Notes: generated by a model from the letters alone, not told the origin. A DNA stretch of 64,000 nucleotides from an uncultured Gammaproteobacteria bacterium (GCA_964641355.1 CAZXND010000001.1:11869-75868); one strand, 5' to 3'; shown: positions 67 through 50,420, counted from the stretch's first letter. Made by a program: numbers and translations.

Positions 67-1029
67 TTAAAGACTGATTAATTTTACTTTTTTTACTATT
101 TTATTTATTAACTCTTTTGTGTCTGAAAACCTATCAAAACTCTTTAGAACAACGACGATGTATGTTTTATTCTTCTGAGAAAGAGATGTTACCAAAACTC
201 CCCCAGCTTCTTCAGTATACCCAGTCTTAACCCCATTTACTCCATCTGTCCCTAAAAGAATATTTAGATTTGAGAGAGTATGACTTACTGGAATATTAAT
301 AGATGAGACGGTAGCGTTTTTAGTTGCAACGATTTTTCTGAAGGTATCATTTTTTAGCGCATATGCTGCTAATTTTGATAAATCTTTTGCGGTTGTAAAA
401 TTGACATCTTCAAGTCCAGATGGATCTACAAAATAAGTATCATTTAACCCCAACTCTGCTGCCTTTTCATTCATTCTAACAACAAATTCAGAGGTTCCAC
501 CGGGGTAATTCTCAGCAAGTGTTACAGCTGCATCATTTCCAGATGGTAAAAGTAAGCCATAAAGTAAATCAATAACTCTAATACTCTCTCCATTAAGCAG
601 ACCCATTCTTGATCCTTCGATAAATTGAGGTGTGCTTGCTGTAAGTATTCTATCTTGTGGATAAGTTTCAAGAGCAATTATTGCGGTCATTATCTTTGCC
701 GATGAAGCTGGAGGAAATCTAAAATCATCATTACGTCCATCTATTACAATCCTCTCTGTGGGATCGTAAACAATAAAAGAGGGAGAAGAGATACTTAGAT
801 TTTCTTTTTCATCAAAAATCGGCAAATCACTAGTGGAAATTGCTTTTGAAGAATAATCTTTGAAATCGTTTTTTGAAACTTTTGAAAGTAAAATAAAAAC
901 AGCAATTATTAGAACGGAGTTAAAAATAAAAAGAGAAAGAAATAGATAAAACTCTTTTCGCTTAAATAGGTTTTGTTTAAATTTTTTAACTTTTTGGTTC
1001 TTGTTTTTCGATAACTGAGAATCTTTCAT
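67..1029 (-). CDS. D-alanyl-D-alanine carboxypeptidase (serine peptidase S11, PBP5/6-like), membrane-anchored
   Basis: SxxK (SSAK), SxN (SGN) and KTG (KTGYT) motifs; N-terminal TM segment. Confidence 0.8.
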   Translation of the reverse strand: MKDSQLSKNKNQKVKKFKQNLFKRKEFYLFLSLFIFNSVLIIAVFILLSKVSKNDFKDYSSKAISTSDLPIFDEKENLSISSPSFIVYDPTERIVIDGRNDDFRFPPASSAKIMTAIIALETYPQDRILTASTPQFIEGSRMGLLNGESIRVIDLLYGLLLPSGNDAAVTLAENYPGGTSEFVVRMNEKAAELGLNDTYFVDPSGLEDVNFTTAKDLSKLAAYALKNDTFRKIVATKNATVSSINIPVSHTLSNLNILLGTDGVNGVKTGYTEEAGGVLVTSLSQKNKTYIVVVLKSFDRFSDTKELINKIVKKVKLISL

Positions 1030-2341
1030 CTACTCTCTCCATATCTCTTGGGTAGAGACTTGCCTCTCTAATATTTCCAAGACCTAATAATTTCCATGTT
1101 AATCTTTCAAGACCAAAGGAAAACCCCCCTTCAGGTGGCATTCCAAATTTAAAAGCTTGAAGATACATTGTAAACTTTTCAGGATCCACTCCGCGATCCC
1201 TCATTGCTAAGACCAGCTGATTGTAATCATTAATTCTTTGACTCCCACTCAAAACTTCCGTACCTCTAAATAAAAGATCGTAAGAGAGACTATACTCTGG
1301 ATTACTTGGATCTGGCATGGTATAAAAAGGCTTCTTGCTTAGTGGAAAATGAGTGATTGTAACAAAATCGCTATCATGCTTATCTTTAGCCCATTTACAA
1401 ATATCCATTTCATCCCCAGGGCCAAGGTCTGGTTCTTTTCTAACATCTCTTCCTGTCTCTTTAAAAATAATTTCTTGCGCTTCTCTTAAAGTTAATCTTG
1501 GAATTTTTCCCATACCTATTTTTGTGTAATTAAATTTCCCAAGCTCAAAAATACTGCTTTCTTCAACAATTTTTATAATACTTGTCCCAACTTTTTCGAG
1601 TAATGTTAGAAGTTCATCATAATCTACAAATCCAAATTCACAATCCATCTGCGTTGATTCTGATAAATGTCTTGTAGTGACAGATGGTTCTGCTCTATAT
1701 GCCCTAGAAATTGTATAAACTCTTTCAAAAACAGGAACCAACATCTGTTTATATAACTGTGGACTTTGAGAAAGATAGGCACGGTGTCCATAATAATTCA
1801 CGTCAAATACTTCAGTTCCCCCTTCTGTTGCTCCTGCAACTATAGTTGGAACAAAAACTTCGGTACAACCCAACTCTTCCACAATTTTTCTAAATGCATT
1901 GACGATTTCTGACTGAATCTTAAATATAGATCTTACCTTCGGATGGCGAAGGGTTAAAGACCTGTAATCCAAAAGAGTAGGCAGTTCTAAGTTTAACTCA
2001 ACCCCTCCCATATCGAAAGGCAAAACTTCTGGTTGGGAAATAATCTTAATTGAAGAAACAGAGATTTCCACTTTTCCTGTTGGAATATTATCGTTAACTG
2101 TATTGTGAGGTCGTTCTTTAACGGTTCCAACCACTTCTACAACACTTTCCGAACGAAGATCCGCAGCTGTAGCAAAAGCTTCGGAATTAGATTCATGCAA
2201 AACAAGCTGTAAAATACCTGTGTAATCGTTTAAATCCACAAATATCAACTTCCCATGATCACGCCTATTTCTAACCCAACCTTTGAGAGTTACATCTTCC
2301 CCCACAAGACTAGAAGCTTTAAGACAAAGAGTTCTTGTCAT
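986..2341 (-). CDS. aspS: Class II aspartyl/asparaginyl-tRNA synthetase (archaeal-type AspRS-like)
   Basis: N-terminal OB anticodon domain, QSPQLYKQ, FRAE..TRHL motif 2, GGFSFGLERL motif 3; about 450 aa. Confidence 0.75.
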   Translation of the reverse strand: MTRTLCLKASSLVGEDVTLKGWVRNRRDHGKLIFVDLNDYTGILQLVLHESNSEAFATAADLRSESVVEVVGTVKERPHNTVNDNIPTGKVEISVSSIKIISQPEVLPFDMGGVELNLELPTLLDYRSLTLRHPKVRSIFKIQSEIVNAFRKIVEELGCTEVFVPTIVAGATEGGTEVFDVNYYGHRAYLSQSPQLYKQMLVPVFERVYTISRAYRAEPSVTTRHLSESTQMDCEFGFVDYDELLTLLEKVGTSIIKIVEESSIFELGKFNYTKIGMGKIPRLTLREAQEIIFKETGRDVRKEPDLGPGDEMDICKWAKDKHDSDFVTITHFPLSKKPFYTMPDPSNPEYSLSYDLLFRGTEVLSGSQRINDYNQLVLAMRDRGVDPEKFTMYLQAFKFGMPPEGGFSFGLERLTWKLLGLGNIREASLYPRDMERVDERFSVIEKQEPKS

Positions 2342-12766: not shown

Positions 12767-12910
12767 ATGGCAAGCATGTATTGTGTAAAATGTAGAGCAA
12801 AAAGAGACGACCCAAACGCAGAAAAGGTTACAATGAAGAATGGAAAACCAGCTTTGAAAGGAAAGTGTCCAGTTTGTGGAACAGCAATGTTCAAAATTGG
12901 AGCAGCGTAG
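12767..12910 (+). CDS. Small zinc-ribbon protein (DUF5679-like), 47 aa; not in the ORF track
   Basis: GGAGGGAGGTGA RBS 6 nt before the ATG; CxxC...CxxC (MASMYCVKCRAK...KCPVCGTAMF). Confidence 0.7.
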   Translation: MASMYCVKCRAKRDDPNAEKVTMKNGKPALKGKCPVCGTAMFKIGAA

Positions 12911-12995
12911 AGATTTGCTCTATTTAACAAAAACCTAATTCTAAATCCATTGGAAATAGATGAGGGTTTTTGTGTTGAATTAGAAACTAAAAAAA

Positions 12996-14549
12996 TTATT
13001 TGTCAGAATATTGTATTAATTTGTAAACTTTCACCACAGAAATATCCCACGAATTTACAACCTCTGCTCTTCCAAAACCCGCAATCTCCCAAAGAGGGTG
13101 ACCAAGAGGTTGGCAAGGAATAGATTCACATACTACGAAAAGCTGATTTGTAACACTTTCTCTCTTTGGATCTATGACGAGATTTTGAATATCAATAGGC
13201 TTATTTCCTTCCACTTCAAAAAAATAACGGTATGCATGATCCGAATTTCCCCCTGTAATAAGAGCGAAATTGAAAGGCTTATTTTCAGCCTTTTCAAGTA
13301 TAAACTCTGAAATTTTCTTGACTTGTCCTCTTTGATTATTCGGAAGAGAAAGAAAAGGAGCACCCAAAAGATTAAAAATAAATAGAAAAATGAAGATCGA
13401 AATAGACACTAACATTCCTAACCTTTTTAAGTGTTTTGAACCAAAAAGTTCTGACAAAAAATTTCCCACAAATAAAAAAGGGAGTGGAAACATAAATCCA
13501 AAATAATAATCATAGATATTTCTTTTGTACAAACCAAAAAGCAAAACACCTAAGATGAGCCAAGTTAGCATTAATATTACAGTGAGTCTATTTTTTATTC
13601 TTAAAATTGCCCAAATAGATGCGATCGCAAGAAAAACTGTAATTACCTGCCAAATTTTAAGATCCAAATGAGCTTCTATTGAAACCTGTTCTGGAGGAGG
13701 GAAGCGAGTAATTAATCTTGCAAAAAGTCTAAAAAAAACGTCACTCGCAATAGTAAGAATGGAAGTGTTTTTTTCTGGGCTAAAAGTGTTTGAAAATATA
13801 AAACCAAAAATTGTTCTTGTGTTGGGAAACCCATGCTTTAGTTCGAATGCTAGAAAAGGAGAAAATCCTATAACAAATCCCATAAAAATAGAAATGTATT
13901 TTTTCCCTAAGTCTAAAATCTCAACTTTTCTTTTTATATACAGCGTACCGAGAAAAATAAAAACAACGATTATTATTGCTAGGAAAACGGCTAAATAATG
14001 AAGCTGCATTGTAATTCCCAAAAGAATTCCCACAATGAAAAATAATTTTAACTTATTATTTTTAACTCCGAGATAAAGAAGAAAAAGGGATAAAATAGAA
14101 AAGAAAGGAACTGGATTAGGATTCCAAGAAGACCTAGAATATGCAATAACTATTGGAGATACCGAATACAAAGAAGCGGCAAAAAGCCCAGTTTTTTCGT
14201 CAAAAAGCTTCTTTCCTACAAGATAAATCAAAAAAACTGTTGCAACACCAAAAATGGCAATCATTATTGCTGGACCAACAGGATCAAGTTTTGTTAACCA
14301 AAGAAAAGGTGCAATAAAGTAATAATAAATGGGGCCTAAGAAAAAATCACCAGCAGAAGCTCTTGGACCAAGAAGGGTAAGCTTTCCCTCGAGAATATGC
14401 TTTGCCACAATAACATCTCTCCCTTCATCTCCTAAAAAAGTCATATATTCAGATATTCTAAAAAAACGAAGGAATGCCGCCAGGGTAATAATAATTCCTA
14501 CAAGAAAGAGGCCTATATTTTTTCTTTTTTGAGGTTCTGAGTTTTCCAT
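12996..14549 (-). CDS. Membrane glycosyltransferase of the ArnT/PMT superfamily (GT39/GT83-like)
   Basis: About 12 TM; N-terminal AAFLRFFRI...FLGDEGRD segment typical of the family. Confidence 0.7.
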   Translation of the reverse strand: MENSEPQKRKNIGLFLVGIIITLAAFLRFFRISEYMTFLGDEGRDVIVAKHILEGKLTLLGPRASAGDFFLGPIYYYFIAPFLWLTKLDPVGPAIMIAIFGVATVFLIYLVGKKLFDEKTGLFAASLYSVSPIVIAYSRSSWNPNPVPFFSILSLFLLYLGVKNNKLKLFFIVGILLGITMQLHYLAVFLAIIIVVFIFLGTLYIKRKVEILDLGKKYISIFMGFVIGFSPFLAFELKHGFPNTRTIFGFIFSNTFSPEKNTSILTIASDVFFRLFARLITRFPPPEQVSIEAHLDLKIWQVITVFLAIASIWAILRIKNRLTVILMLTWLILGVLLFGLYKRNIYDYYFGFMFPLPFLFVGNFLSELFGSKHLKRLGMLVSISIFIFLFIFNLLGAPFLSLPNNQRGQVKKISEFILEKAENKPFNFALITGGNSDHAYRYFFEVEGNKPIDIQNLVIDPKRESVTNQLFVVCESIPCQPLGHPLWEIAGFGRAEVVNSWDISVVKVYKLIQYSDK

Positions 14550-15715
14550 ATTATCTTATTATAAATGAAATAATTCAAAGGAATAACTACAAAAATAATC
14601 GTTGGAACAAGTACAAATATTCGCGTAACAAATGTGAATCCAAGTAATTTAAAACTTTCACCAAATAAAGAAACGAATATAAAAACCGATGAAAATTGAA
14701 TTACAACAGCAGCGATAGATGTTAGATTAAATTTAATAAACTTGGATAAAAAGTGAGGTGCTTCCCTTTCTTTTCTAGTATCACTAAATGTCCAAATATT
14801 ATTAAATGTGAAATTAGAAATAATGGCCGCCTCAGCACCAATTCCAGCTGCCCATGCGTCCCTTAGTGAGTCGCTTAATATAAGAACCGCAGGAATAACT
14901 AATAAAGCAAAGAGTTCTTGAACTAAAACTTGTATAATAAATCCTGAAACCCCAACGACTAAAAACTTTATAAATCTTTGTAATTCAATTACTCTTGCAA
15001 TAATTACATAATAAAGGACATCCATAATATATCCAAGAGGAGCGATTTTTGATTTACCAAGCGTTCTATCTGTGAAGTGGAAAGGAACTTCTCCAATTTT
15101 AAATCCATCTCTTACCGCTTTATGTAGAAATGAAATCTGGAAAATATATCCATTATAGTTTTCTAATTCTTTCTTTTCTTTTAAAAAAACTTCTTTTTTA
15201 AGAGCTCTATACCCACCAGTCCAATCATGAATATTAAATCTCATGAATACAGATCTTACAAAAAGATTGGCAATAATTGAAAAAGCTTTTCTTTGAGGTG
15301 GCCAATTTTTTGGAATGGATCCACCTTCACTATATCTTGTTCCAATTACCATATCGCTTCCCAAATCTATCTTTTTAAGAAACTCAGGTACCTTATTTGG
15401 ATCATGTTGCCCATCAGCATCCATTTCAAATAAAACGTCTGCCCCCATTTTTTCAACAGCATAAGACATAGCTCTAACATAAGCAGCTCCCAAACCCTTC
15501 TTCTCACCCAGGCTTACATCTATGTTTTTATATTTTTTTGCCAGATTTCTGACCACATCAACTGTCTTATCAGGAGAATTGTCATCGGCAACCAATATAG
15601 ACATTTCATAATTCTTAACTTGAGGAAAAATATCTTCTTCAAGTATATTAATTAGTTTTTCTATATTTTCACGTTCGTTATAAGTGGGTAAGATAATTAC
15701 TACTTTTTTAAGCAT
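14513..15715 (-). CDS. GT2 polyprenol-phosphate glycosyltransferase (DPM synthase-like) fused to a GtrA-like membrane domain
   Basis: ILPTYNERENI...VADDNSPD...EMDADGQHDP GT2 motifs; C-terminal 4-TM GtrA-like region. Confidence 0.8.
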   Translation of the reverse strand: MLKKVVIILPTYNERENIEKLINILEEDIFPQVKNYEMSILVADDNSPDKTVDVVRNLAKKYKNIDVSLGEKKGLGAAYVRAMSYAVEKMGADVLFEMDADGQHDPNKVPEFLKKIDLGSDMVIGTRYSEGGSIPKNWPPQRKAFSIIANLFVRSVFMRFNIHDWTGGYRALKKEVFLKEKKELENYNGYIFQISFLHKAVRDGFKIGEVPFHFTDRTLGKSKIAPLGYIMDVLYYVIIARVIELQRFIKFLVVGVSGFIIQVLVQELFALLVIPAVLILSDSLRDAWAAGIGAEAAIISNFTFNNIWTFSDTRKEREAPHFLSKFIKFNLTSIAAVVIQFSSVFIFVSLFGESFKLLGFTFVTRIFVLVPTIIFVVIPLNYFIYNKIIWKTQNLKKEKI

Positions 15716-16672
15716 TTATATATTTTTTTTATAATAATTTATTGTTTTTTCTAGTCCCTCTTCAATAACCACCTTCGGATCATAACCAAGGACTTTTTGA
15801 GCTTTTGATATATCCGGTCTTCTTTGATGGGGATCATCTGATGGCAACTCTTCATAAACAATTTCTGATTTTGAACCTGTTAAAGTCTTAATTATTGTAG
15901 CAAGCTGTGCTATTGTATATTCTTGCGGATTACCTAAGTTAACTATCTCCCCATTAATTCCATCGATTGTAGTAAGCTTGAAAATTCCATCAATCAGATC
16001 AGACACGTAGCAAAAGCTTCTAGTTTGATCACCCTTCCCATAAATTGTAATAGGAGCGTCAGACAATGCTTGATTAATAAAATTTGAAACTACCCTACCA
16101 TCCTCTTTAGACAGTCTTTCTCCGAATGTATTAAAAATCCTCATTATTCGTGTATCTAGACCAAAAGATCTGTTATAAGCGGCTGTGACTGCCTCCCCAA
16201 ATCTTTTCCCCTCATCATATACAGATCTAACACCGTTAGGATTTACATTTCCAAAATAATCTTCTTTTTGAGGTGAAACCATTGGATCTCCATAAACCTC
16301 AGAAGATGAAGCATATACAAATCTCGCTTTTTTTTCTTTTGCTAGATTTAAAAGATTATAAGTTCCAACACTATTAACTCTTAATGTTTCTATTGGGTGG
16401 TTTATATAACTATTCTTACTTTTCCTATTTGGAGAAGCAGGAGAAGCCATGTGAATAATTACATACAACTCTTCCGATAAATTTAATGGAGAAATAATAT
16501 CATGCTCGATAAATTTAAAATTGGAATTATCAACAAATGAGGAGAGGTTTTCCTTTTTTCCAGTAAGAAAGTTATCTAAGCCAATTACAAAATATCCTCC
16601 GCTTAAAAATTTTTCAGCAAGATGAGAACCCAGAAATCCTGCAACCCCAGTTATAAGAACATTATTTTTCAT
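15716..16672 (-). CDS. UDP-glucuronate decarboxylase (UDP-xylose synthase)-like SDR
   Basis: VLITGVAGFLGSHL...GLDNFLTGKKENL; YxxxK; UXS family pattern. Confidence 0.75.
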   Translation of the reverse strand: MKNNVLITGVAGFLGSHLAEKFLSGGYFVIGLDNFLTGKKENLSSFVDNSNFKFIEHDIISPLNLSEELYVIIHMASPASPNRKSKNSYINHPIETLRVNSVGTYNLLNLAKEKKARFVYASSSEVYGDPMVSPQKEDYFGNVNPNGVRSVYDEGKRFGEAVTAAYNRSFGLDTRIMRIFNTFGERLSKEDGRVVSNFINQALSDAPITIYGKGDQTRSFCYVSDLIDGIFKLTTIDGINGEIVNLGNPQEYTIAQLATIIKTLTGSKSEIVYEELPSDDPHQRRPDISKAQKVLGYDPKVVIEEGLEKTINYYKKNI

Positions 16673-42438: not shown

Positions 42439-43953
42439 TTATACCTCTTCAAATCTTTTAATTACAAAATCTCTACTTAGTGAAAGAATTAACCAAGCAG
42501 CTTTTGGACCATGGTCTTTTCCAATAAGACTCGTATAAATAGCTGAATATGCATCTTTGGATAGTAAATCAAGTTCTTTTGCCCAAGTGTACATATTCGT
42601 TTGAAAATCTTCAGCATTCCAATCCTTATTTAATTCATTTGCAATTCTTCTGAGAAATTTTTTTTGCTGTTCACTCAAATTCGAAACATTCTCCGATAGC
42701 TCCTGTTGCACCATAAATTTGTCCTTTTCAGAAGCATATTTTTCCAACCATATTTTTGCATATTTGCCCCATTCTTCAGCACCAACTTTGTTAATTTCCT
42801 TTTCCATATTAGGCATTTGCACCCATTGTGAAATTGTTGAAAATCTAACATTAGGAGGAATCTTGATCTCACCCACTTGAGAAAGCTCGAATTCTCTTGC
42901 AAAATCGTCCCCTTTTTTCGAAAAATAAGCCTCTGCGGCTTTCTGATACTCATCAAAAAGTTTAGGAATAGTTTCTCCTTCGGGATCAAAATTTATAGCC
43001 TGGTTTATTTTAGTTTTCACCATAAGAAAACGTAGAATTTCAGGAGGAAGAATATCAAGCATTTCGCTCGCTGAGGAGCCTCTTCCTTTGGATGAAGACA
43101 TTTTCTTACCTCCAACCAAAAAAAACTCGTAAGCAACCGGTTGTGGTACTGGATAACTTATCACTCTTTCACAAATCAAACTCGCTAAATCGTGTGATCC
43201 TCCCTTACTCATGTGGTCCTTACCAGCCCCCTCGACGGTAACACCAATAACCTTCCACTTAGCCGGCCATTCAACTTTCCAAGGTAACTTTCCTGAAATG
43301 TTACCATCAGAGCTAAAGGGAGATATTCTTCCCTCATGGCCACAACCCTTCACCCAATTTAAACCGTCAATTTTACAAATATATGAAACTTTTTCGCCAT
43401 CCCAAGCATTCACTTTTGTAGTTGAAACCTTGTCACAATTTTCACAATAAACCTGAAACGGAAACCAATCAGAAGGAATTTCTTTTTTATATAACTCCGA
43501 ATAGATTTTTCTTATCTCACTTACTTTATCAAGACATTCACGGATCACATCGTTCATTCTTCCACTTCCATAAAGATCTGTTGACCAAATAATCTCAGGC
43601 TCACAGTCTAGTGCATTAAAAACTTTTTTGAAATCAAGAGCAAAATATTCAGCATAATTTTTAAACCCAGGTTGTGGAGATGGAACTTTATAAAGAGGCA
43701 CTCCTAGATATTTATCAAACTCTTTTGGAAGATAAACTGGTAAATCATCCATGGGATCATGATCGTCAAAAACATAGGTATACTTAGCATTTATTCCAGC
43801 ATTTTTTAGCGATTTATATATCAGATCGTGAATAACCACTCCGCGTAGAGAACCAACATGAATCCTTCCTGAAGGAGTTTTCATGTCGTCCACCCATTCT
43901 AAGGGGAGATTTCTTTCCTTTAATTTTTGAGCAACTTGGTCAGACCAATACAT
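42439..43953 (-). CDS. lysK: Class I lysyl-tRNA synthetase (archaeal type)
   Basis: TPSGRIHVGSLRG (HIGH region), FDDHDPMDDLP and KMSSSKG (KMSKS) motifs; about 500 aa. Confidence 0.8.
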   Translation of the reverse strand: MYWSDQVAQKLKERNLPLEWVDDMKTPSGRIHVGSLRGVVIHDLIYKSLKNAGINAKYTYVFDDHDPMDDLPVYLPKEFDKYLGVPLYKVPSPQPGFKNYAEYFALDFKKVFNALDCEPEIIWSTDLYGSGRMNDVIRECLDKVSEIRKIYSELYKKEIPSDWFPFQVYCENCDKVSTTKVNAWDGEKVSYICKIDGLNWVKGCGHEGRISPFSSDGNISGKLPWKVEWPAKWKVIGVTVEGAGKDHMSKGGSHDLASLICERVISYPVPQPVAYEFFLVGGKKMSSSKGRGSSASEMLDILPPEILRFLMVKTKINQAINFDPEGETIPKLFDEYQKAAEAYFSKKGDDFAREFELSQVGEIKIPPNVRFSTISQWVQMPNMEKEINKVGAEEWGKYAKIWLEKYASEKDKFMVQQELSENVSNLSEQQKKFLRRIANELNKDWNAEDFQTNMYTWAKELDLLSKDAYSAIYTSLIGKDHGPKAAWLILSLSRDFVIKRFEEV

Positions 43954-43958
43954 AACCT

Positions 43959-45068
43959 TTACTCATTATACAATCGAATTATGTCTTTATATACCTGCTC
44001 AGTTTTTTCTAATGAATTAAGATCAAGCCACTCCTCTTTTGTGTGACCTCCTCCACCAATGGGTCCCAAACTTATCACTGGAATATTTAAACGATTAGCA
44101 AAAATATTTTCGTCTGCAACAGAAGAAGCATAAGTTGGTTTTACTTTATTTTTATCAAAAATTTCTTTTTCCAAAATTTTTAGAAATTTATTGTCCCTAT
44201 TTATCTCATAAGATTCACCGTATGGCGTATCTCTTTCTACAGGACGGCAATTTACTTCAATATTATTTTCTTTTGCGGTTGATAGAATTTTTTCTTTTAC
44301 AGATTCACTTGTTATTCCCGGTGTTGTTAAAACTGAAAAAGTAATAACACACTTATCAGGCGTTGAAAAAGATGTAGTGTCAGAATGAATAGACTGTAGT
44401 ACAATTTTTACACTATCTAAAAATTCATGCTTTGGGAAATTTATACTTGATAAGATTTTGATAAACCTTGCAGCCTCATTAATAGCATTTACTCCTTTTT
44501 CTTCTTCTGCAGCATGTGCTTTTTTTCCAGTTACCGTAGCTTGGAAAAGTATTCTTCCTTTTCTTCCATAGCAAACATTAAAAGGCTGATTTAAGTCTTT
44601 TATTTGGCCGCTTTCTCCAGAAATAAGGAAATTAATATTGTTTAAAATCCCTGAGTCGACTAAGTCGTGCGCCCCTCGAGATATCTGTTCCTCATCAACA
44701 CCAAAAATAAGTTGTAAGGGATATTTATTTTCTACAGCAAACTCTGCGGCCTTAAGAATAGCAGCAATTGCACCTTTCATATCTTCAACTCCCAATCCGT
44801 ATGCCTTTTTTCCATCTATTTCTAGTTTTAAAGGGTCGCGCTCACTTTTCTCATCCATATGTACAGTATCCATGTGACCATAAAAGGATAGGTAACTAGA
44901 GGATTTACCAAAACGAGCAACTATATTACTCCTATTTCCTTGAGTTAATACCTTCTCAACTTTAAAACCAATTGAAATTAAATGTTCAGAAATAAATCTA
45001 GAAATTTTTTCTTCTGAAGATGTTGAATCGATGTCGATCAATTTTTTTATTAATTCTATTGTTTTCAT
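43959..45068 (-). CDS. M20-family metallopeptidase/deacylase (ArgE/DapE-like)
   Basis: YGHMDTVH, GVEDMKGAIAA, GGGHTKEE motifs. Confidence 0.8.
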   Translation of the reverse strand: MKTIELIKKLIDIDSTSSEEKISRFISEHLISIGFKVEKVLTQGNRSNIVARFGKSSSYLSFYGHMDTVHMDEKSERDPLKLEIDGKKAYGLGVEDMKGAIAAILKAAEFAVENKYPLQLIFGVDEEQISRGAHDLVDSGILNNINFLISGESGQIKDLNQPFNVCYGRKGRILFQATVTGKKAHAAEEEKGVNAINEAARFIKILSSINFPKHEFLDSVKIVLQSIHSDTTSFSTPDKCVITFSVLTTPGITSESVKEKILSTAKENNIEVNCRPVERDTPYGESYEINRDNKFLKILEKEIFDKNKVKPTYASSVADENIFANRLNIPVISLGPIGGGGHTKEEWLDLNSLEKTEQVYKDIIRLYNE

Positions 45069-46477
45069 TATGGGCGAAACCTAACCTTTCTTTTTTCCAT
45101 TTCTTTTACTATCTCGTTGCATCGCTCTTCGCTCTTTCCCATAATAAGCACCTTAAAGTTAGGAGATGGAATGATGTTTTTTCTCGTAACTAACGTTCTA
45201 AATGCTTGAGGAATAACTAAGCCTTGTTCTATGTTACCATATGCCAAATCTTCTCCTATAACTTCTACGTAATCCGAAATTGTTTGTATTGGTTTATCAG
45301 TATATACGTTTGTATTTATCCAATTCTCCGCTCCTAATTTTGTAGCGACAATATATGGAGGAGTATTTGCTGTAGGGCGAGAGTTGAGTTCTACCACGTA
45401 CACAGACTCTTTCCCTTGATCATCCCTTATAAGAAACCAGTCTACGCCTTGTACACCGAAATACTCATTAGATTCTGTACTATAATTTGCAACTTTCTGA
45501 ACTTGATCATCAACTAAAAGTTTTGAGCCGTTTTTTGGCCGAAAGGGGCGATTCCCAAGATATTCACCTTCGTCAGTAGTAATTTGATCGAAATAACCAA
45601 TGATTTCTGGCATTCCCGATCTGCTCGTAATAAACTGAGTACTACCATTTATAACAACTTCTCCCAAGTTTCTCGCATCACTCTCTATAACTATTCCAAA
45701 ACCGAGAGGTGAAAATGAGTCCCTTGGCCAAAGTTCTTCAATTTTTCTACCAAAAGATCCTTTAAATAGGGCTCTTTCTATCGAACTTCGAATCTCCGAT
45801 ATCCCACTTAAAACTTCATCTGTAGTAACAAAAGGAATACGCTTTACTAAATCCCCCCCCGATCCAGTAGGAAATTTAAGCCAGACTCCATATTCTGTGC
45901 TTGAAAACTGTTGAACTAGTGTTTCCACATCTTCTAGAGATCGCATAGTGGCTCCTGGAAGCATTTGAAATCCAAACCTAACTGCAGACTCTCTTAACTC
46001 TTCTTTATTATTAGTTATCGCACTATCCCTTCGATTAATCGTTTCTATGTTTAGTGCTCTCTGTTGTCTACTTACTCCATCGTTAGAAAAAGTAGGTACT
46101 AAATACATGGGGTTGTCTGAATTTTCAATTTTCACCCTTCCCGATAAGGATTCGAGAGGATCTGTTGCGGGATATCCATAAGTAACCTCCCCGTTTAGAT
46201 CAGGTTCAACTTCAATTATGTGCGAATCTTGAGGAATTAAACCATGTCGAGAATAATACTCATATAATCCTTCTATGAGGTTGTTGCAAATAACCGTTTC
46301 ACCGCTGCTTATTGCTGGTACCGCAGTGTTTCTTAGATACCAATCTCCATCGGGAAATGGTAAAGCTAACTTATGGTCAGGGTTAACATAATTTAAAGTC
46401 ACGAATGGCTCGCCCTCCAAATTGTTACTTCTTAGGGCAGTGTGACCTAATGAAACTCCACTTTCAACTTTTGTCAT
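45068..46477 (-). CDS. ATP-grasp domain enzyme (carboxylate-amine ligase-like), 469 aa
   Basis: VWLKFPTGSGGDLVKR and VVELNSRP ATP-grasp-like motifs; composition differs from flanking genes. Confidence 0.5.
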   Translation of the reverse strand: MTKVESGVSLGHTALRSNNLEGEPFVTLNYVNPDHKLALPFPDGDWYLRNTAVPAISSGETVICNNLIEGLYEYYSRHGLIPQDSHIIEVEPDLNGEVTYGYPATDPLESLSGRVKIENSDNPMYLVPTFSNDGVSRQQRALNIETINRRDSAITNNKEELRESAVRFGFQMLPGATMRSLEDVETLVQQFSSTEYGVWLKFPTGSGGDLVKRIPFVTTDEVLSGISEIRSSIERALFKGSFGRKIEELWPRDSFSPLGFGIVIESDARNLGEVVINGSTQFITSRSGMPEIIGYFDQITTDEGEYLGNRPFRPKNGSKLLVDDQVQKVANYSTESNEYFGVQGVDWFLIRDDQGKESVYVVELNSRPTANTPPYIVATKLGAENWINTNVYTDKPIQTISDYVEVIGEDLAYGNIEQGLVIPQAFRTLVTRKNIIPSPNFKVLIMGKSEERCNEIVKEMEKRKVRFRP

Positions 46478-46624
46478 AAAAATAAAAAAACCCCTATTTT
46501 GGGGCTATATTTTGACACCAAAAAAGCCCTCTAATTAAAGAGTGTGCTTCTTGGATTTTACAGAATTAAAATTCAATATCATTTTTCAGATATTAGCATG
46601 TATATTATACCTTGTCAAATTAAG

Positions 46625-48133
46625 TTATCTATCTTTTACGGGAGGGAAAAGTATTATATCGCGGATGTGAGGCGTATTAGTAAGAATCATGGCCATTCTA
46701 TCAATGGATATCCCTATTCCAGCCATTGGGGGAAATCCATATTCCATAGCTGTTAAAAAGTCTTCGTCTACTTCCATTGCCTCTTTATCTCCTTCAAGTT
46801 TTCTTTGTCTTTGATCTTCAAACCTAGCTCGTTGATCTCTAGGATCATTCAATTCTGAATAGCAATTCATGACCTCGAATCCACCAATATAACATTCGAA
46901 TCTTTCAACTAAATTAGGATTATTTCTGTGCCTTTTTGTTAGAGGACTTGTTTCATGAGGATAGTCCATTACAAAAGTTGGCTGAGTAAATTTACCATCG
47001 TAATACTCTTCAAAAAGAGCAAGTAAAAGATCTCCTCTTTGCTGGCTATGTTTTGGATTTATATTTAGACCATCGGCTATTTTGTATAAATCCTTATCGA
47101 TTACTGTTTCTGGATCAAAACCATAAGCCTCTTTTAGACCTTCATAGATTGTCACTCTCTTCCAAGGAGCTTTAAAATCAATAACGTGTCCATTATATTC
47201 AACTTGCGTTGTTCCATGTATGTCTTGTGCTACTCTCTCAAAGATTGTTTCTGCCATCTCAAGCATTTCTAAATAATCTGAGTAAGGTTTATAAAGTTCT
47301 ACAGCGGTAAATTCAGGATTATGTGTCCTATCCATTCCTTCATTTCTAAAGTTTCTGGAAAATTCAAATACCGGTCCCATATTCCCACAAACAAGGCGTT
47401 TTAGATAAAGCTCATTTGCTAATCTTAAATACATGTCTTGATCTAAGGCATTAAAATGGGTAATAAATGGTTTTGCGTTTGCGCCTCCGTAAGTATTATC
47501 AAGAACTGGAGTCTCCACTTCTAAAAATCCGTACCCCAAGAACTCATCTCTCATTATTTGAGTCATTCTAGCTCTTGTTCTAAATCTTTCACGAGCGTTT
47601 GGATTTGTCATAAGTTCAAGATATCTTTGCCTCCTTGCAAGCTCGGGATCTTCAACTCCTCCTCTTCTAATTAAAGGTGGCGGAAGCAAAGCTTTAGCAA
47701 GCATTGTCAATTCTTGTGCTTTTATTGTTATTTCACCGGTTTTAGTTCTAAAAACCTCTCCTTGAGCATTCACAAAATCACCGGTATCGTAGTTATCGGC
47801 TATTAGAATAAATTTCTCGTCTTCTGGCCCGTTTTTCTTAAGATAAACCTGAACTTTTCCCGTAGTATCTTCTACATCGTAAAAAATAGATTTTCCCATC
47901 TCTCTTCGACCTACGATTCGACCAACCACACTTACCCTTCTTTCTTCTAGTGAATCAAACTCCGATGCTATTGCTCCGGCTGTGTGAGTTATCAAAGGAG
48001 GTTCAACGGGATATGCATTTATTCCAGCAGCTTCGAGATTTTGAAGGTGGTTAAGTCTTGAATTTCTACCAGTATTTCTCTCTTGTTGTATGGGTGAATC
48101 TTGTGGCTGAGGCGGCCCTTCTTTCCTTATCAT
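46625..48133 (-). CDS. lysS: Class II lysyl-tRNA synthetase (full length, with N-terminal anticodon-binding OB domain)
   Basis: RLNHLQNLEAAGINAYP, VSVVGRIVGRREMGK, FRNEGMDRTHNPEFTAVE (motif 2); about 500 aa. Confidence 0.9.
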   Translation of the reverse strand: MIRKEGPPQPQDSPIQQERNTGRNSRLNHLQNLEAAGINAYPVEPPLITHTAGAIASEFDSLEERRVSVVGRIVGRREMGKSIFYDVEDTTGKVQVYLKKNGPEDEKFILIADNYDTGDFVNAQGEVFRTKTGEITIKAQELTMLAKALLPPPLIRRGGVEDPELARRQRYLELMTNPNARERFRTRARMTQIMRDEFLGYGFLEVETPVLDNTYGGANAKPFITHFNALDQDMYLRLANELYLKRLVCGNMGPVFEFSRNFRNEGMDRTHNPEFTAVELYKPYSDYLEMLEMAETIFERVAQDIHGTTQVEYNGHVIDFKAPWKRVTIYEGLKEAYGFDPETVIDKDLYKIADGLNINPKHSQQRGDLLLALFEEYYDGKFTQPTFVMDYPHETSPLTKRHRNNPNLVERFECYIGGFEVMNCYSELNDPRDQRARFEDQRQRKLEGDKEAMEVDEDFLTAMEYGFPPMAGIGISIDRMAMILTNTPHIRDIILFPPVKDR

Positions 48134-48135
48134 TT

Positions 48136-48759
48136 TTACTTGAAAGCAACAAGTACCAATTCACCATCGAGTACTCTTTTTGTATATACGTTGCCCTCTG
48201 TAGAATCTAAGTCTTCCGGGTTATAAAAAGAATGTTGACCATTAATCACTACGTTTCCTTCAGGTGTAGCTTGTAGATTAAACCTCTGTTGAGTCCCTAA
48301 AACTACAACAGAAGAATCCGGTGGCAATACTTTTCCAAAATCCATATTTAAAGCTTCAAGAAGACTTGCTGGTCTAAGGTTTTCCGGAAGGTCTTCTGCA
48401 AACTCTTCTGGTGTTTTTCTTCCAGTTGCCTCAACAACTTTTACCCAAGAAGGGGATGGCAGCCAATAAGGAGAGTTCTCAGGAAATCTATAAACACCAC
48501 TACCAACATCTACTCCCTGAAGTTTTATCTGATCAGAGATAGGAACCAATGGATCAACGATAACAAGACTCGCTCCATCTGATAAGTGCGGGGATCTTAT
48601 TGCTTCTGAAATCGCAGGGCCGAATCGATCTATATAATCACCAAGGGACATACCTAATGAAGAATGATACCCAATAAGAGTTTTTCTATCTATTTGCGCT
48701 TCGCAGAGTGCGCGCACTTGTATTGCTGAGTCAGTTGGTGTTAAAGATTCTCCAGTCAT
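48136..48759 (-). CDS. Hypothetical soluble protein translationally coupled to lysS
   Basis: ORF stop lies 2 nt before the lysS start; no recognisable domain; GC-richer composition. Confidence 0.4.
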   Translation of the reverse strand: MTGESLTPTDSAIQVRALCEAQIDRKTLIGYHSSLGMSLGDYIDRFGPAISEAIRSPHLSDGASLVIVDPLVPISDQIKLQGVDVGSGVYRFPENSPYWLPSPSWVKVVEATGRKTPEEFAEDLPENLRPASLLEALNMDFGKVLPPDSSVVVLGTQQRFNLQATPEGNVVINGQHSFYNPEDLDSTEGNVYTKRVLDGELVLVAFK

Positions 48760-48844
48760 AAGTCATATATAGCTACTTAAATTAAGTAAAATACTCGTTT
48801 TGCTGGGATTTTAGCACTCGAAACATATGTTGTCAAATAATAGT

Positions 48845-49822
48845 TTACTCTCTAACTACTGTTGTTCCTCTGAATGTTGGATTAAAAGTATTTTTGACCC
48901 TCAAGACAATTTCAGTACCAAATAAGGGCTCGAGCGTTCTGTAGTGCAATACCTTAGCACCGTTTTTAGCCATTCTATCAGCTTCAATATAGGTTAATCT
49001 GTCAATAATATGCGCATTAGAATTATATCGTGGATCAGAAGTAAATACACCATCAACATCTGTCCATATCCATACTTCTTTTGCCCCCAACAGTCTTCCA
49101 ATAAATGATGCTGAAAAATCAGATCCTCCCCTGCCTAAAGTTGTAACTCTTCCGTCCTGAGTCGATCCTAAAAATCCAGTTATTACTGGCGTGACTCCTT
49201 TTCTCAATAGTGGATTAACTATTTGCTCAGCTTTTTCTTCACTCAATAGAACATCTGGTTTAGCTTCTCCAAATAAGTTGTCAGTCTTTATTATTTCCGA
49301 TGATGAAACAACTTCTGACCTAATTCCCTCCTGATTAAGCTTAGCGCTTATAAGTCTTACACTCATCCTTTCACCATACGAAAGAATCCTGTCCTTTTTT
49401 TCTGCATCTGATAATCCAATGGAATTAATATCTCTTCTTAAACCAATGAATAGTTCTCTTAACTCGTTGACAAGAGACGTTCTTATTTGTAAGGAAAGTT
49501 TCAATTGGCTGGCCGCAGTTAAATGAATATCAAATATAGTCCTTAACTCTCTGTCTTTTCTAGAAATATCCCCTATATCGGCGTCACAAATTGCTACTAA
49601 ACGGTTTGTAATACCTGACATTGCTGAAGCAACAACTACTACAGCTTGCCCATCTTTGACATGAGATTTTACAATTTGACTAACTCTTTCTATTTGGGAA
49701 CCTCCTCCTACTGATGTCCCACCAAATTTCATCACATAAATGCTTCTATTTTTTTCTACCTCATTTTTTCGTAAACCTTCTAAACAATTGTGCCCGTTCT
49801 CAATTTTTCCCATTTTTGCCAA
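48845..49822 (-). CDS. Aspartokinase catalytic core lacking C-terminal ACT domains (true start probably at the internal MKFGGTSV)
   Basis: VMKFGGTSVGG and TTLGRGGSDFSA amino-acid-kinase motifs; only about 295-325 aa. Confidence 0.7.
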   Translation of the reverse strand: MAKMGKIENGHNCLEGLRKNEVEKNRSIYVMKFGGTSVGGGSQIERVSQIVKSHVKDGQAVVVVASAMSGITNRLVAICDADIGDISRKDRELRTIFDIHLTAASQLKLSLQIRTSLVNELRELFIGLRRDINSIGLSDAEKKDRILSYGERMSVRLISAKLNQEGIRSEVVSSSEIIKTDNLFGEAKPDVLLSEEKAEQIVNPLLRKGVTPVITGFLGSTQDGRVTTLGRGGSDFSASFIGRLLGAKEVWIWTDVDGVFTSDPRYNSNAHIIDRLTYIEADRMAKNGAKVLHYRTLEPLFGTEIVLRVKNTFNPTFRGTTVVRE

Positions 49823-49823
49823 T

Positions 49824-49844
49824 AAAAAACCCCTCCTTGAGGGG
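49824..49844 (-). terminator. Intrinsic terminator (second of a tandem pair downstream of greA)
   Basis: Minus strand reads CCCCTCAAGGAGGGG hairpin followed by TTTTTT. Confidence 0.7.
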
Positions 49845-49952: not shown

Positions 49953-50420
49953 TTAGTGGATTTCAACGATTGTGTAAAGTACTTTTCCTGCCGGTGCTTC
50001 CACCTCAACCTTTTCCCCAACAGCACGACCGATCAATGCTTTTCCAAGAGGAGATTCATGTGAAATCTTCTTTGCCTGGGGATCTGCTTCCCACTCTCCA
50101 ACTAACGTAAACTTTTCTTTCTTACCTGAAACTGAAAGCGTAACAGATGACCCGAGTTCTATGCTTTTTGAACCGTTAGTTTTTTCTTGAATTAAAGTTG
50201 CATTCTTTAGAAGCTCAGAAAGCTCTTCTATTCTTCCGTCAATTAGAGATAGCTCTTCACGCGCTGCTGTGTATTCTGAATTTTCTGCAAGATCTCCCAT
50301 TGCTCTAGCTTGAGAAACACGTTCTAAGACTTCAGGTCTTTTTACCTTGCTTAATTCCTCAAATTCCTTTTTTAACTCTTCAAGTCCTTCTTTCGTTACA
50401 AAAATTTGTTTTTTATCCAT
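49953..50420 (-). CDS. greA: Transcription elongation factor GreA
   Basis: N-terminal coiled coil (GDLAENSEY) plus C-terminal FKBP-like domain; 155 aa. Confidence 0.9.
   Translation of the reverse strand: MDKKQIFVTKEGLEELKKEFEELSKVKRPEVLERVSQARAMGDLAENSEYTAAREELSLIDGRIEELSELLKNATLIQEKTNGSKSIELGSSVTLSVSGKKEKFTLVGEWEADPQAKKISHESPLGKALIGRAVGEKVEVEAPAGKVLYTIVEIH

Follow-up and report, generated by a model that had tools for sequence, protein, structure and literature searches.

A predicted aspartokinase without ACT domains is linked to lysyl-tRNA synthetase genes in Microgenomates-type CPR bacteria

In a 64,000-nucleotide stretch of DNA deposited under the name of an uncultured Gammaproteobacteria bacterium (GCA_964641355.1 CAZXND010000001.1:11869-75868; this whole stretch is hereafter the window), the minus-strand open reading frame (ORF) at 48845-49822 is predicted to encode a stand-alone aspartokinase (AK) catalytic core, without the ACT domains. 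The protein belongs to a family of ACT-less AKs from Microgenomates-type bacteria of the Candidate Phyla Radiation (CPR), in which the truncation is of long standing and fixed in the lineage; it is neither an error nor recent decay. Selection keeps the AK gene beside a gene for lysyl-tRNA synthetase (LysRS), and we infer that the role of the enzyme is tied to lysine. Literature searches returned no account of the family or of its linkage to LysRS, and nothing relevant on ACT-less aspartokinases or on lysine or diaminopimelate (DAP) genes in Microgenomates.

The ORF encodes 325 amino acids (aa) when read from TTG 49822 and 322 aa when read from ATG 49813, the form chosen in the public gene call (P0001). 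Both aspartokinase signatures pointed out in an earlier note on this DNA are located in it, VMKFGGTSVGG at residues 30-40 and TTLGRGGSDFSA at residues 227-238. The sole Pfam match is PF00696 (AA_kinase, residues 28-311, E 4.5e-49), which spans profile positions 2-234 of 234, and no ACT family is matched in the ORF; the domain search thus bears out the ACT-less core that the note had proposed. The NCBIfam model TIGR00657 (asp_kinases) is matched with 281.8 bits (cut-off 208.7), over model positions 4-284 of 442 only. All of the full-length equivalog aspartokinase models stay below their cut-offs for this protein, because one third of each model remains unmatched. The closest solved structure is the AK of M. 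jannaschii, in which the match runs from residue 4 to residue 299 of the 473-residue chain and stops where the ACT region begins. The catalytic AAK domain is 42-47% identical to those of Anaerolineae and related AKs. The homologues are annotated merely as 'aspartate kinase' in public records.

In E. coli LysC, E119 binds the alpha-amino group of aspartate and R198 its alpha-carboxylate, and further contacts are made by A40, T45, F184 and S201 (PMC5481828). We mapped these residues by aligning the window protein to 2J0W (E. coli LysC). LysC K8, S39, A40, T45 and E119 correspond to K32, S66, A67, T72 and E151 of the window protein, and F184, R198 and S201 to F217, R231 and S234. All eight positions, which comprise the L-aspartate site and the phosphoryl-transfer lysine, are invariant columns of a 43-sequence family alignment, although the homologues are only 43-58% identical overall. 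This conservation makes it very probable that the window protein is an active aspartate kinase without allosteric regulation.

The site is made for a free alpha-amino acid, which disfavors N-acylated or carrier-bound substrates and hence a role like that of LysZ or ArgB. The fold families of LysX, LysZ and LysK are all represented within 5 kb, as would be expected if the kinase acted in a LysW-type carrier pathway together with the neighboring ATP-grasp ligase and M20 hydrolase. This explanation is largely refuted and we regard it as extremely improbable. Neither ArgB nor LysZ is among the 25 families listed of the 30 NCBIfam families that match the window protein (one other kinase is among those listed, ProB, E 1e-6), and the window holds no LysW-like ORF; membership in the LysZ/ArgB subfamily was rejected on these grounds and on the free alpha-amino site. 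The TIGR00657 score and the free-aspartate site residues place the protein with the aspartokinases.

The gene spans only two thirds of a canonical AK and lies in a reduced genome, as might be expected of a truncated relic, or of an assembly or frameshift artifact, without function. Conservation refutes this explanation, which is hardly credible. Three other sequencing runs yielded, on assembly, an identical 322-aa protein whose stop and neighbors also agree. A database search returned 58 ACT-less cluster representatives (~283-377 aa, PF00696 alone), partly named Daviesbacteria, Levybacteria or Patescibacteria, and full-length AKs, mostly from Anaerolineae, rank only after these 58, at 41-47% identity. 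All 43 aligned homologues, with their invariant catalytic residues, stop 2-10 aa past a common ...VKNTFNPxxEGTxI boundary. In a neighbor-joining tree of catalytic cores, the 58 short proteins form a single clade apart from the 62 nearest canonical AKs. The GC content of the gene is the same as that of its flanks, and recent horizontal transfer was rejected on this basis. The earlier note had allowed that ACT domains might be encoded in another frame. We used the C-terminal 175 aa of each of 40 canonical AKs to build a hidden Markov model (HMM) of the ACT region. A six-frame search of the whole window with it gave no match (best E 0.54), and the ORF is not followed by an ACT remnant. A frameshifted gene was rejected on the strength of this result and of the identical ORF in the other runs. 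The re-assembly, the common end boundary, the monophyly and the uniform GC content together establish the truncation as old and fixed.

The genomic setting of the family was compared between nine family loci, namely the window and eight related loci (L001, L004, L088, L089, L090, L091, L092 and L093) whose AKs are 40-57% identical to each other, and 80 control loci of the nearest canonical AKs (1.33 Mb). The controls come from a scan of a genome collection with the ACT-less AK alignment, which was dominated by canonical AKs and recovered no member of the family. A LysRS gene is located within 10 kb of the AK gene in all nine family loci, eight of which have it within 2.7 kb (gaps of -40 to 9188 nt over all nine), whereas it is absent from all 80 canonical loci (Fisher's exact p = 1.6e-12, for nine loci that are not phylogenetically independent). 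The adjacency of aspartokinase and LysRS that had been noticed earlier in the window is thus a conserved feature of the family. E. coli Asd proved insensitive as the sole probe for asd (detected in 1 of 80 canonical loci), and an HMM of the Gram-positive/archaeal type of Asd was built from weak hits. This model places asd beside AK in 30 canonical loci out of 80, among them seven of the ten best-scoring ones, and in none of the nine family loci. The family has therefore traded the ancestral lysC-asd linkage for a linkage with LysRS.

Gene order and even strand vary among the family loci. AK comes first in the window and in L004; it comes last in L001, L088 and L093, behind a series formed by a family of orphan proteins (207 aa in the window), LysRS, a gene X and a deacylase. 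It follows the same series in L090, where a second LysRS comes next, lies immediately before a class I LysRS in L089, and is convergent with LysRS in L091. This reshuffling bears on the possibility that an ordinary AK feeds homoserine, threonine, methionine or polyamine precursors and that its adjacency to LysRS is inherited synteny without functional meaning. A backbone of GreA ... LysRS-Ham1-SerRS-SecA is indeed common to the window, L004, L089, L091 and a locus without AK (L007), and the syntenic region of three relatives includes a Tdh/Kbl pair (threonine 3-dehydrogenase and glycine C-acetyltransferase; L089 1-2212, L007 4027-6248 and L091 15089-17295), which indicates threonine catabolism to glycine and acetyl-CoA. 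We nevertheless consider inherited synteny a rather improbable explanation: the linkage persists despite changes in order and strand, occurs outside the backbone in L001, L088, L090, L092 and L093, and no hom, thrB or asd is found nearby.

Other families travel with the kinase. The 207-aa orphan family is present in seven of the nine loci, always directly upstream of class II LysRS and translationally coupled to it (7/7). A word-based homologue search with the window protein returned the query alone, and an exhaustive search found 25 distant relatives; in a metagenome scan with the family, the first alignment was too divergent and the second yielded three loci only. The 207-aa ORF has no Pfam match, and its confident structural model (pLDDT 86.9) does not show an ACT fold, for which reason it was rejected as an ACT subunit. 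ArgE/DapE-type M20 or HDAC-type deacylases are encoded in eight of the nine loci, a second LysRS in four (a class I enzyme in the window and in L091, a class II enzyme in L004 and in L090), and a decarboxylase of the Orn/Lys/Arg type in two.

Four of the nine loci encode a protein of ~210-217 aa with a C-terminal AK-type ACT_7 domain (L001 3345-3998, L004 8215-8868, L091 17384-18016 and L093 3356-4015; Pfam 24.7 bits, E 2e-5; hhalign against AK ACT2, probability 73%, E 3e-5). It could be a regulator in trans or an amino-acid-sensing transcription factor. Its presence also raises the possibility of a split aspartokinase, in which the ACT part would be a separate subunit and the enzyme would not be deregulated. 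This is very unlikely, as the ACT_7 protein combines a single ACT with an unrelated N-terminal part of ~140 aa of no assigned family, unlike AK beta subunits; the 207-aa neighbor of the kinase does not have an ACT fold; and all frames of the 64 kb window are devoid of homologues of the ACT_7 protein and of AK-type ACT domains. The description 'deregulated' in the earlier note therefore fits the window, where no ACT is encoded, but is too broad for the four relatives that encode a separate ACT protein nearby.

Additional features were observed in the related loci. ORFs of 341-345 aa occupy the slot after class II LysRS in four of them (L001 7700-8734, L093 7682-8719, L088 7825-8862 and L090 5361-6386); these show no detectable similarity across loci, nor to Pfam or PDB entries, and a GNAT-like Q/RxxGxG/A motif was recognized in them by eye only. 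Fusions occur in relatives, of class I LysRS to a B3_4 domain (748-752 aa; L089 5072-7330 and L007 12647-14893) and of Ham1 to SerRS (620 aa; L089 7337-9199). In L088, FtsH is split by an intein with a LAGLIDADG domain (12839-16054), and the same contig has a group I intron match (1937-2129, 90 bits).

The AK gene follows greA (49953-50420, minus strand), whose intrinsic terminator, read from the sequence, occupies 49824-49844 on the minus strand and consists of the hairpin CCCCTC-AAG-GAGGGG (49844-49830) and a T6 tract (49829-49824). The earlier note had concluded that the TTG start has no ribosome-binding site and had preferred an internal ATG at 49732. The loop and 3' arm of the hairpin, however, read AAGGAGG, a Shine-Dalgarno sequence that ends 9 nt before TTG 49822 and 18 nt before ATG 49813. 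An open extension of 11-59 codons before MKFGG is kept in 42 of the 43 aligned homologues. Within P0002-P0009 it has the common form MRNIEGEN.S..YLDINSSLEKER..PLYVMKFGG, and the window protein and P0008 have C.L...EVE...IYVMKFGG in common. The conservation of the extension implies that it is coding, so that the internal ATG is unlikely to be the true start. A second terminator-like hairpin is found at 49892-49874. In two cases in the window, a terminator hairpin ends a few nt before the next start codon (49824-49844 and 46489-46506, both on the minus strand).

On the minus strand, greA, its hairpin and T-tract, the aspartokinase ORF, an 85-nt gap, the 207-aa ORF (48136-48759), class II LysRS (46625-48133) and a terminator-like hairpin with a T-run (46489-46506) follow one another, and the stop of the 207-aa ORF is 2 nt from the LysRS start. 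The kinase therefore heads a terminator-bounded unit that contains LysRS, in agreement with the earlier note. The 85-nt gap has no terminator and contains a promoter-like site, TTGACA-17-TAAAAT, on the same strand (48808-48836; 11/12 matches and a TG extension, as in an extended -10; a consensus match only). The class II LysRS (NF001756, 589 bits, cut-off 468), with an OB anticodon-binding domain, looks fully canonical, and an alignment with E. coli LysU and chain 9slz_A shows that motifs 2 and 3 and the lysine-pocket residues of its active site are kept.

The next unit, also on the minus strand, is headed by a 469-aa ATP-grasp peptide ligase of the PGM1/LdmS/BesA type (45068-46477; no Pfam match). 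Its stop is overlapped by the start of an M20 metallohydrolase of the ArgE/DapE family (43959-45068), assigned at the family level only (TIGR01910, 151 bits, below the cut-off of 217.6). Class I LysRS, the second LysRS of the cluster (42439-43953; PF01921, 315 bits), Ham1 and SerRS come next, and SecA follows after a 422-nt gap. The class II and class I LysRS genes are thus 2.7 kb apart in one gene cluster. A Pfam survey covered ~55 of the 63 window ORFs of at least 110 aa, and the surveyed ORFs are ordinary CPR housekeeping genes. A third class IIb synthetase in the window is a non-discriminating AspRS (986-2341, minus strand; NF003483, 465 bits, cut-off 353), which implies tRNA-dependent asparagine formation. 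No riboswitch, T-box or L-box (Rfam) was detected in the window at the gathering threshold or around the cluster at E<=1, nor in eight related loci.

It would be most economical to place the kinase at the entry to DAP/lysine supply, with asd and the later genes encoded elsewhere or supplied otherwise, and we would give this role a little less than an even chance. The ACT-less AK would phosphorylate the beta-carboxylate of free L-aspartate with ATP, yielding beta-aspartyl phosphate, and DAP and lysine derived from aspartate semialdehyde would be supplied to LysRS and to the cell wall. Lacking ACT domains, the enzyme would not be feedback-inhibited by lysine, threonine or methionine. Any control would have to be transcriptional, or in trans in some relatives. 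The gene is probably co-transcribed with the 207-aa orphan and class II LysRS in the terminator-bounded unit; co-localization with LysRS and with ArgE/DapE-type deacylases would stand in place of allosteric control. A lysine/DAP role is favored because LysRS, DapE/ArgE-type deacylases and a DapF-like gene keep company with the kinase. The combination of lysC and asd has been reported in a genus of Saccharimonadia, another Patescibacteria lineage (preprint).

Several observations weigh against this supply role. As the earlier note had stated for asd, dapA and dapB downstream of the kinase, the Pfam survey of window ORFs is negative for asd, dapA, dapB, hom and lysA; the same five genes are missing from the window and ~190 kb of related loci taken together (~250 kb in total), and the Asd HMM has no match in six frames of the window. 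The asd adjacency of canonical relatives is lost, with asd in 0/9 family loci. The M20 protein scores under the DapE equivalog cut-offs, and the DapF-like gene, present in one locus, reaches 77 bits, below its cut-off of 114.65. Lysine salvage would be an equally good function for the deacylases. Canonical AKs dimerize via their ACT domains, and the activity of the bare domain is an assumption. CPR genomes generally lack amino-acid biosynthesis.

The loss of the asd linkage (0/9 versus 30/80) and the gain of the LysRS linkage (9/9 versus 0/80) also invite the idea that the kinase is active but that beta-aspartyl phosphate bypasses Asd and is consumed by the co-localized orphan proteins in a reaction linked to lysine or Lys-tRNA. 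The earlier note had gone in a similar direction with its suggestion that the acyl phosphate serves something other than bulk lysine synthesis, and the difference in asd linkage points the same way. Examples would be the beta-aspartylation of lysine, Lys-tRNA or cell-wall lysine, or an unrecognized Lys/DAP route via the 207-aa protein, the ~340-aa ORFs, the ATP-grasp ligase and the deacylases. The coupling to LysRS of an orphan family of no known fold (7/7 loci), the duplication of LysRS in 4/9 loci and the presence of deacylases and an Asp-ligase-like ATP-grasp enzyme alongside AK are in keeping with such a bypass. We nevertheless regard it, with the examples included, as unlikely: no aspartyl-phosphate-accepting enzyme of a known kind other than Asd, and no acceptor or transferase, was identified in the family loci, the class II LysRS appears to be an ordinary one, and the ATP-grasp/M20 pair is found without AK too. 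In the more specific form in which the ACT-less AK would feed an Asd-independent reaction coupled to lysine or Lys-tRNA via co-inherited orphans, be it a new acyl-phosphate-dependent modification or an unrecognized lysine/DAP route, the proposal seems to us quite doubtful.

Aspartate kinase is a textbook allosteric enzyme, and a lineage that has lost the sensor domains while keeping the site intact shows that the catalytic domain can stand alone. The loss of ACT leads one to ask by what means flux is controlled in very small genomes, if it is controlled at all. The LysRS linkage, often with two LysRS and an orphan LysRS-coupled protein, amounts to a lineage-specific 'lysine module' in organisms usually held to be amino-acid auxotrophs. 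Should asd prove to be absent, aspartyl phosphate would have a new metabolic fate; should it be present, these CPR bacteria synthesize lysine/DAP themselves, a point of relevance for models of their host dependence.

Among known systems, the canonical monofunctional AKs of the LysC type (M. jannaschii 2HMF/3C1M, E. coli AKIII 2J0W, Anaerolineae) resemble the window protein in the catalytic domain, which aligns end to end with residues 4-299 of the M. jannaschii enzyme, and all of their aspartate- and nucleotide-binding motifs are kept. Their C-terminal ACT1-ACT2 module (~150-170 aa), which carries inhibition by lysine or threonine and, in solved enzymes, the dimer interface, is missing from the window protein. 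The window family also differs from them in its variable N-terminal extension of 11-59 aa and in its gene context, which is LysRS in the family and asd in the canonical relatives. Short archaeal AKs (TIGR02078 'AspKin_pair' of Pyrococcus; NF006234/PRK08373, models of 327-338 aa) are likewise ~330 aa long and without the full regulatory region. The window protein falls below the cut-offs of both models (TIGR02078, 155.9 versus 242.4; NF006234, 186.7 versus 237), and its nearest relatives are full-length bacterial and archaeal AKs, indicating that the truncation arose independently of the Pyrococcus type. The short AKs of Pyrococcus sit with threonine-pathway genes and are not known to be linked to LysRS.

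The alpha2beta2 aspartokinases of Corynebacterium, Thermus and Bacillus (3AAW/3AB4, 5YEI) set a precedent for catalytic and regulatory parts on separable polypeptides, and the separate ACT protein encoded near AK in some relatives is reminiscent of this arrangement. In the alpha2beta2 type, ACT domains persist in the alpha chain, and the same gene gives rise to the beta chain as an in-frame internal product, whereas the window kinase gene is without any ACT and the window has no ACT gene. Finally, LysX-LysZ-LysK of LysW-mediated lysine/arginine biosynthesis likewise cluster an ATP-grasp ligase, an AAK-family kinase and an M20 hydrolase. The window cluster differs in that its kinase is of the aspartokinase subfamily with a site for a free amino acid, its ligase belongs to another ATP-grasp clade, and no carrier protein, reductase or aminotransferase accompanies them.
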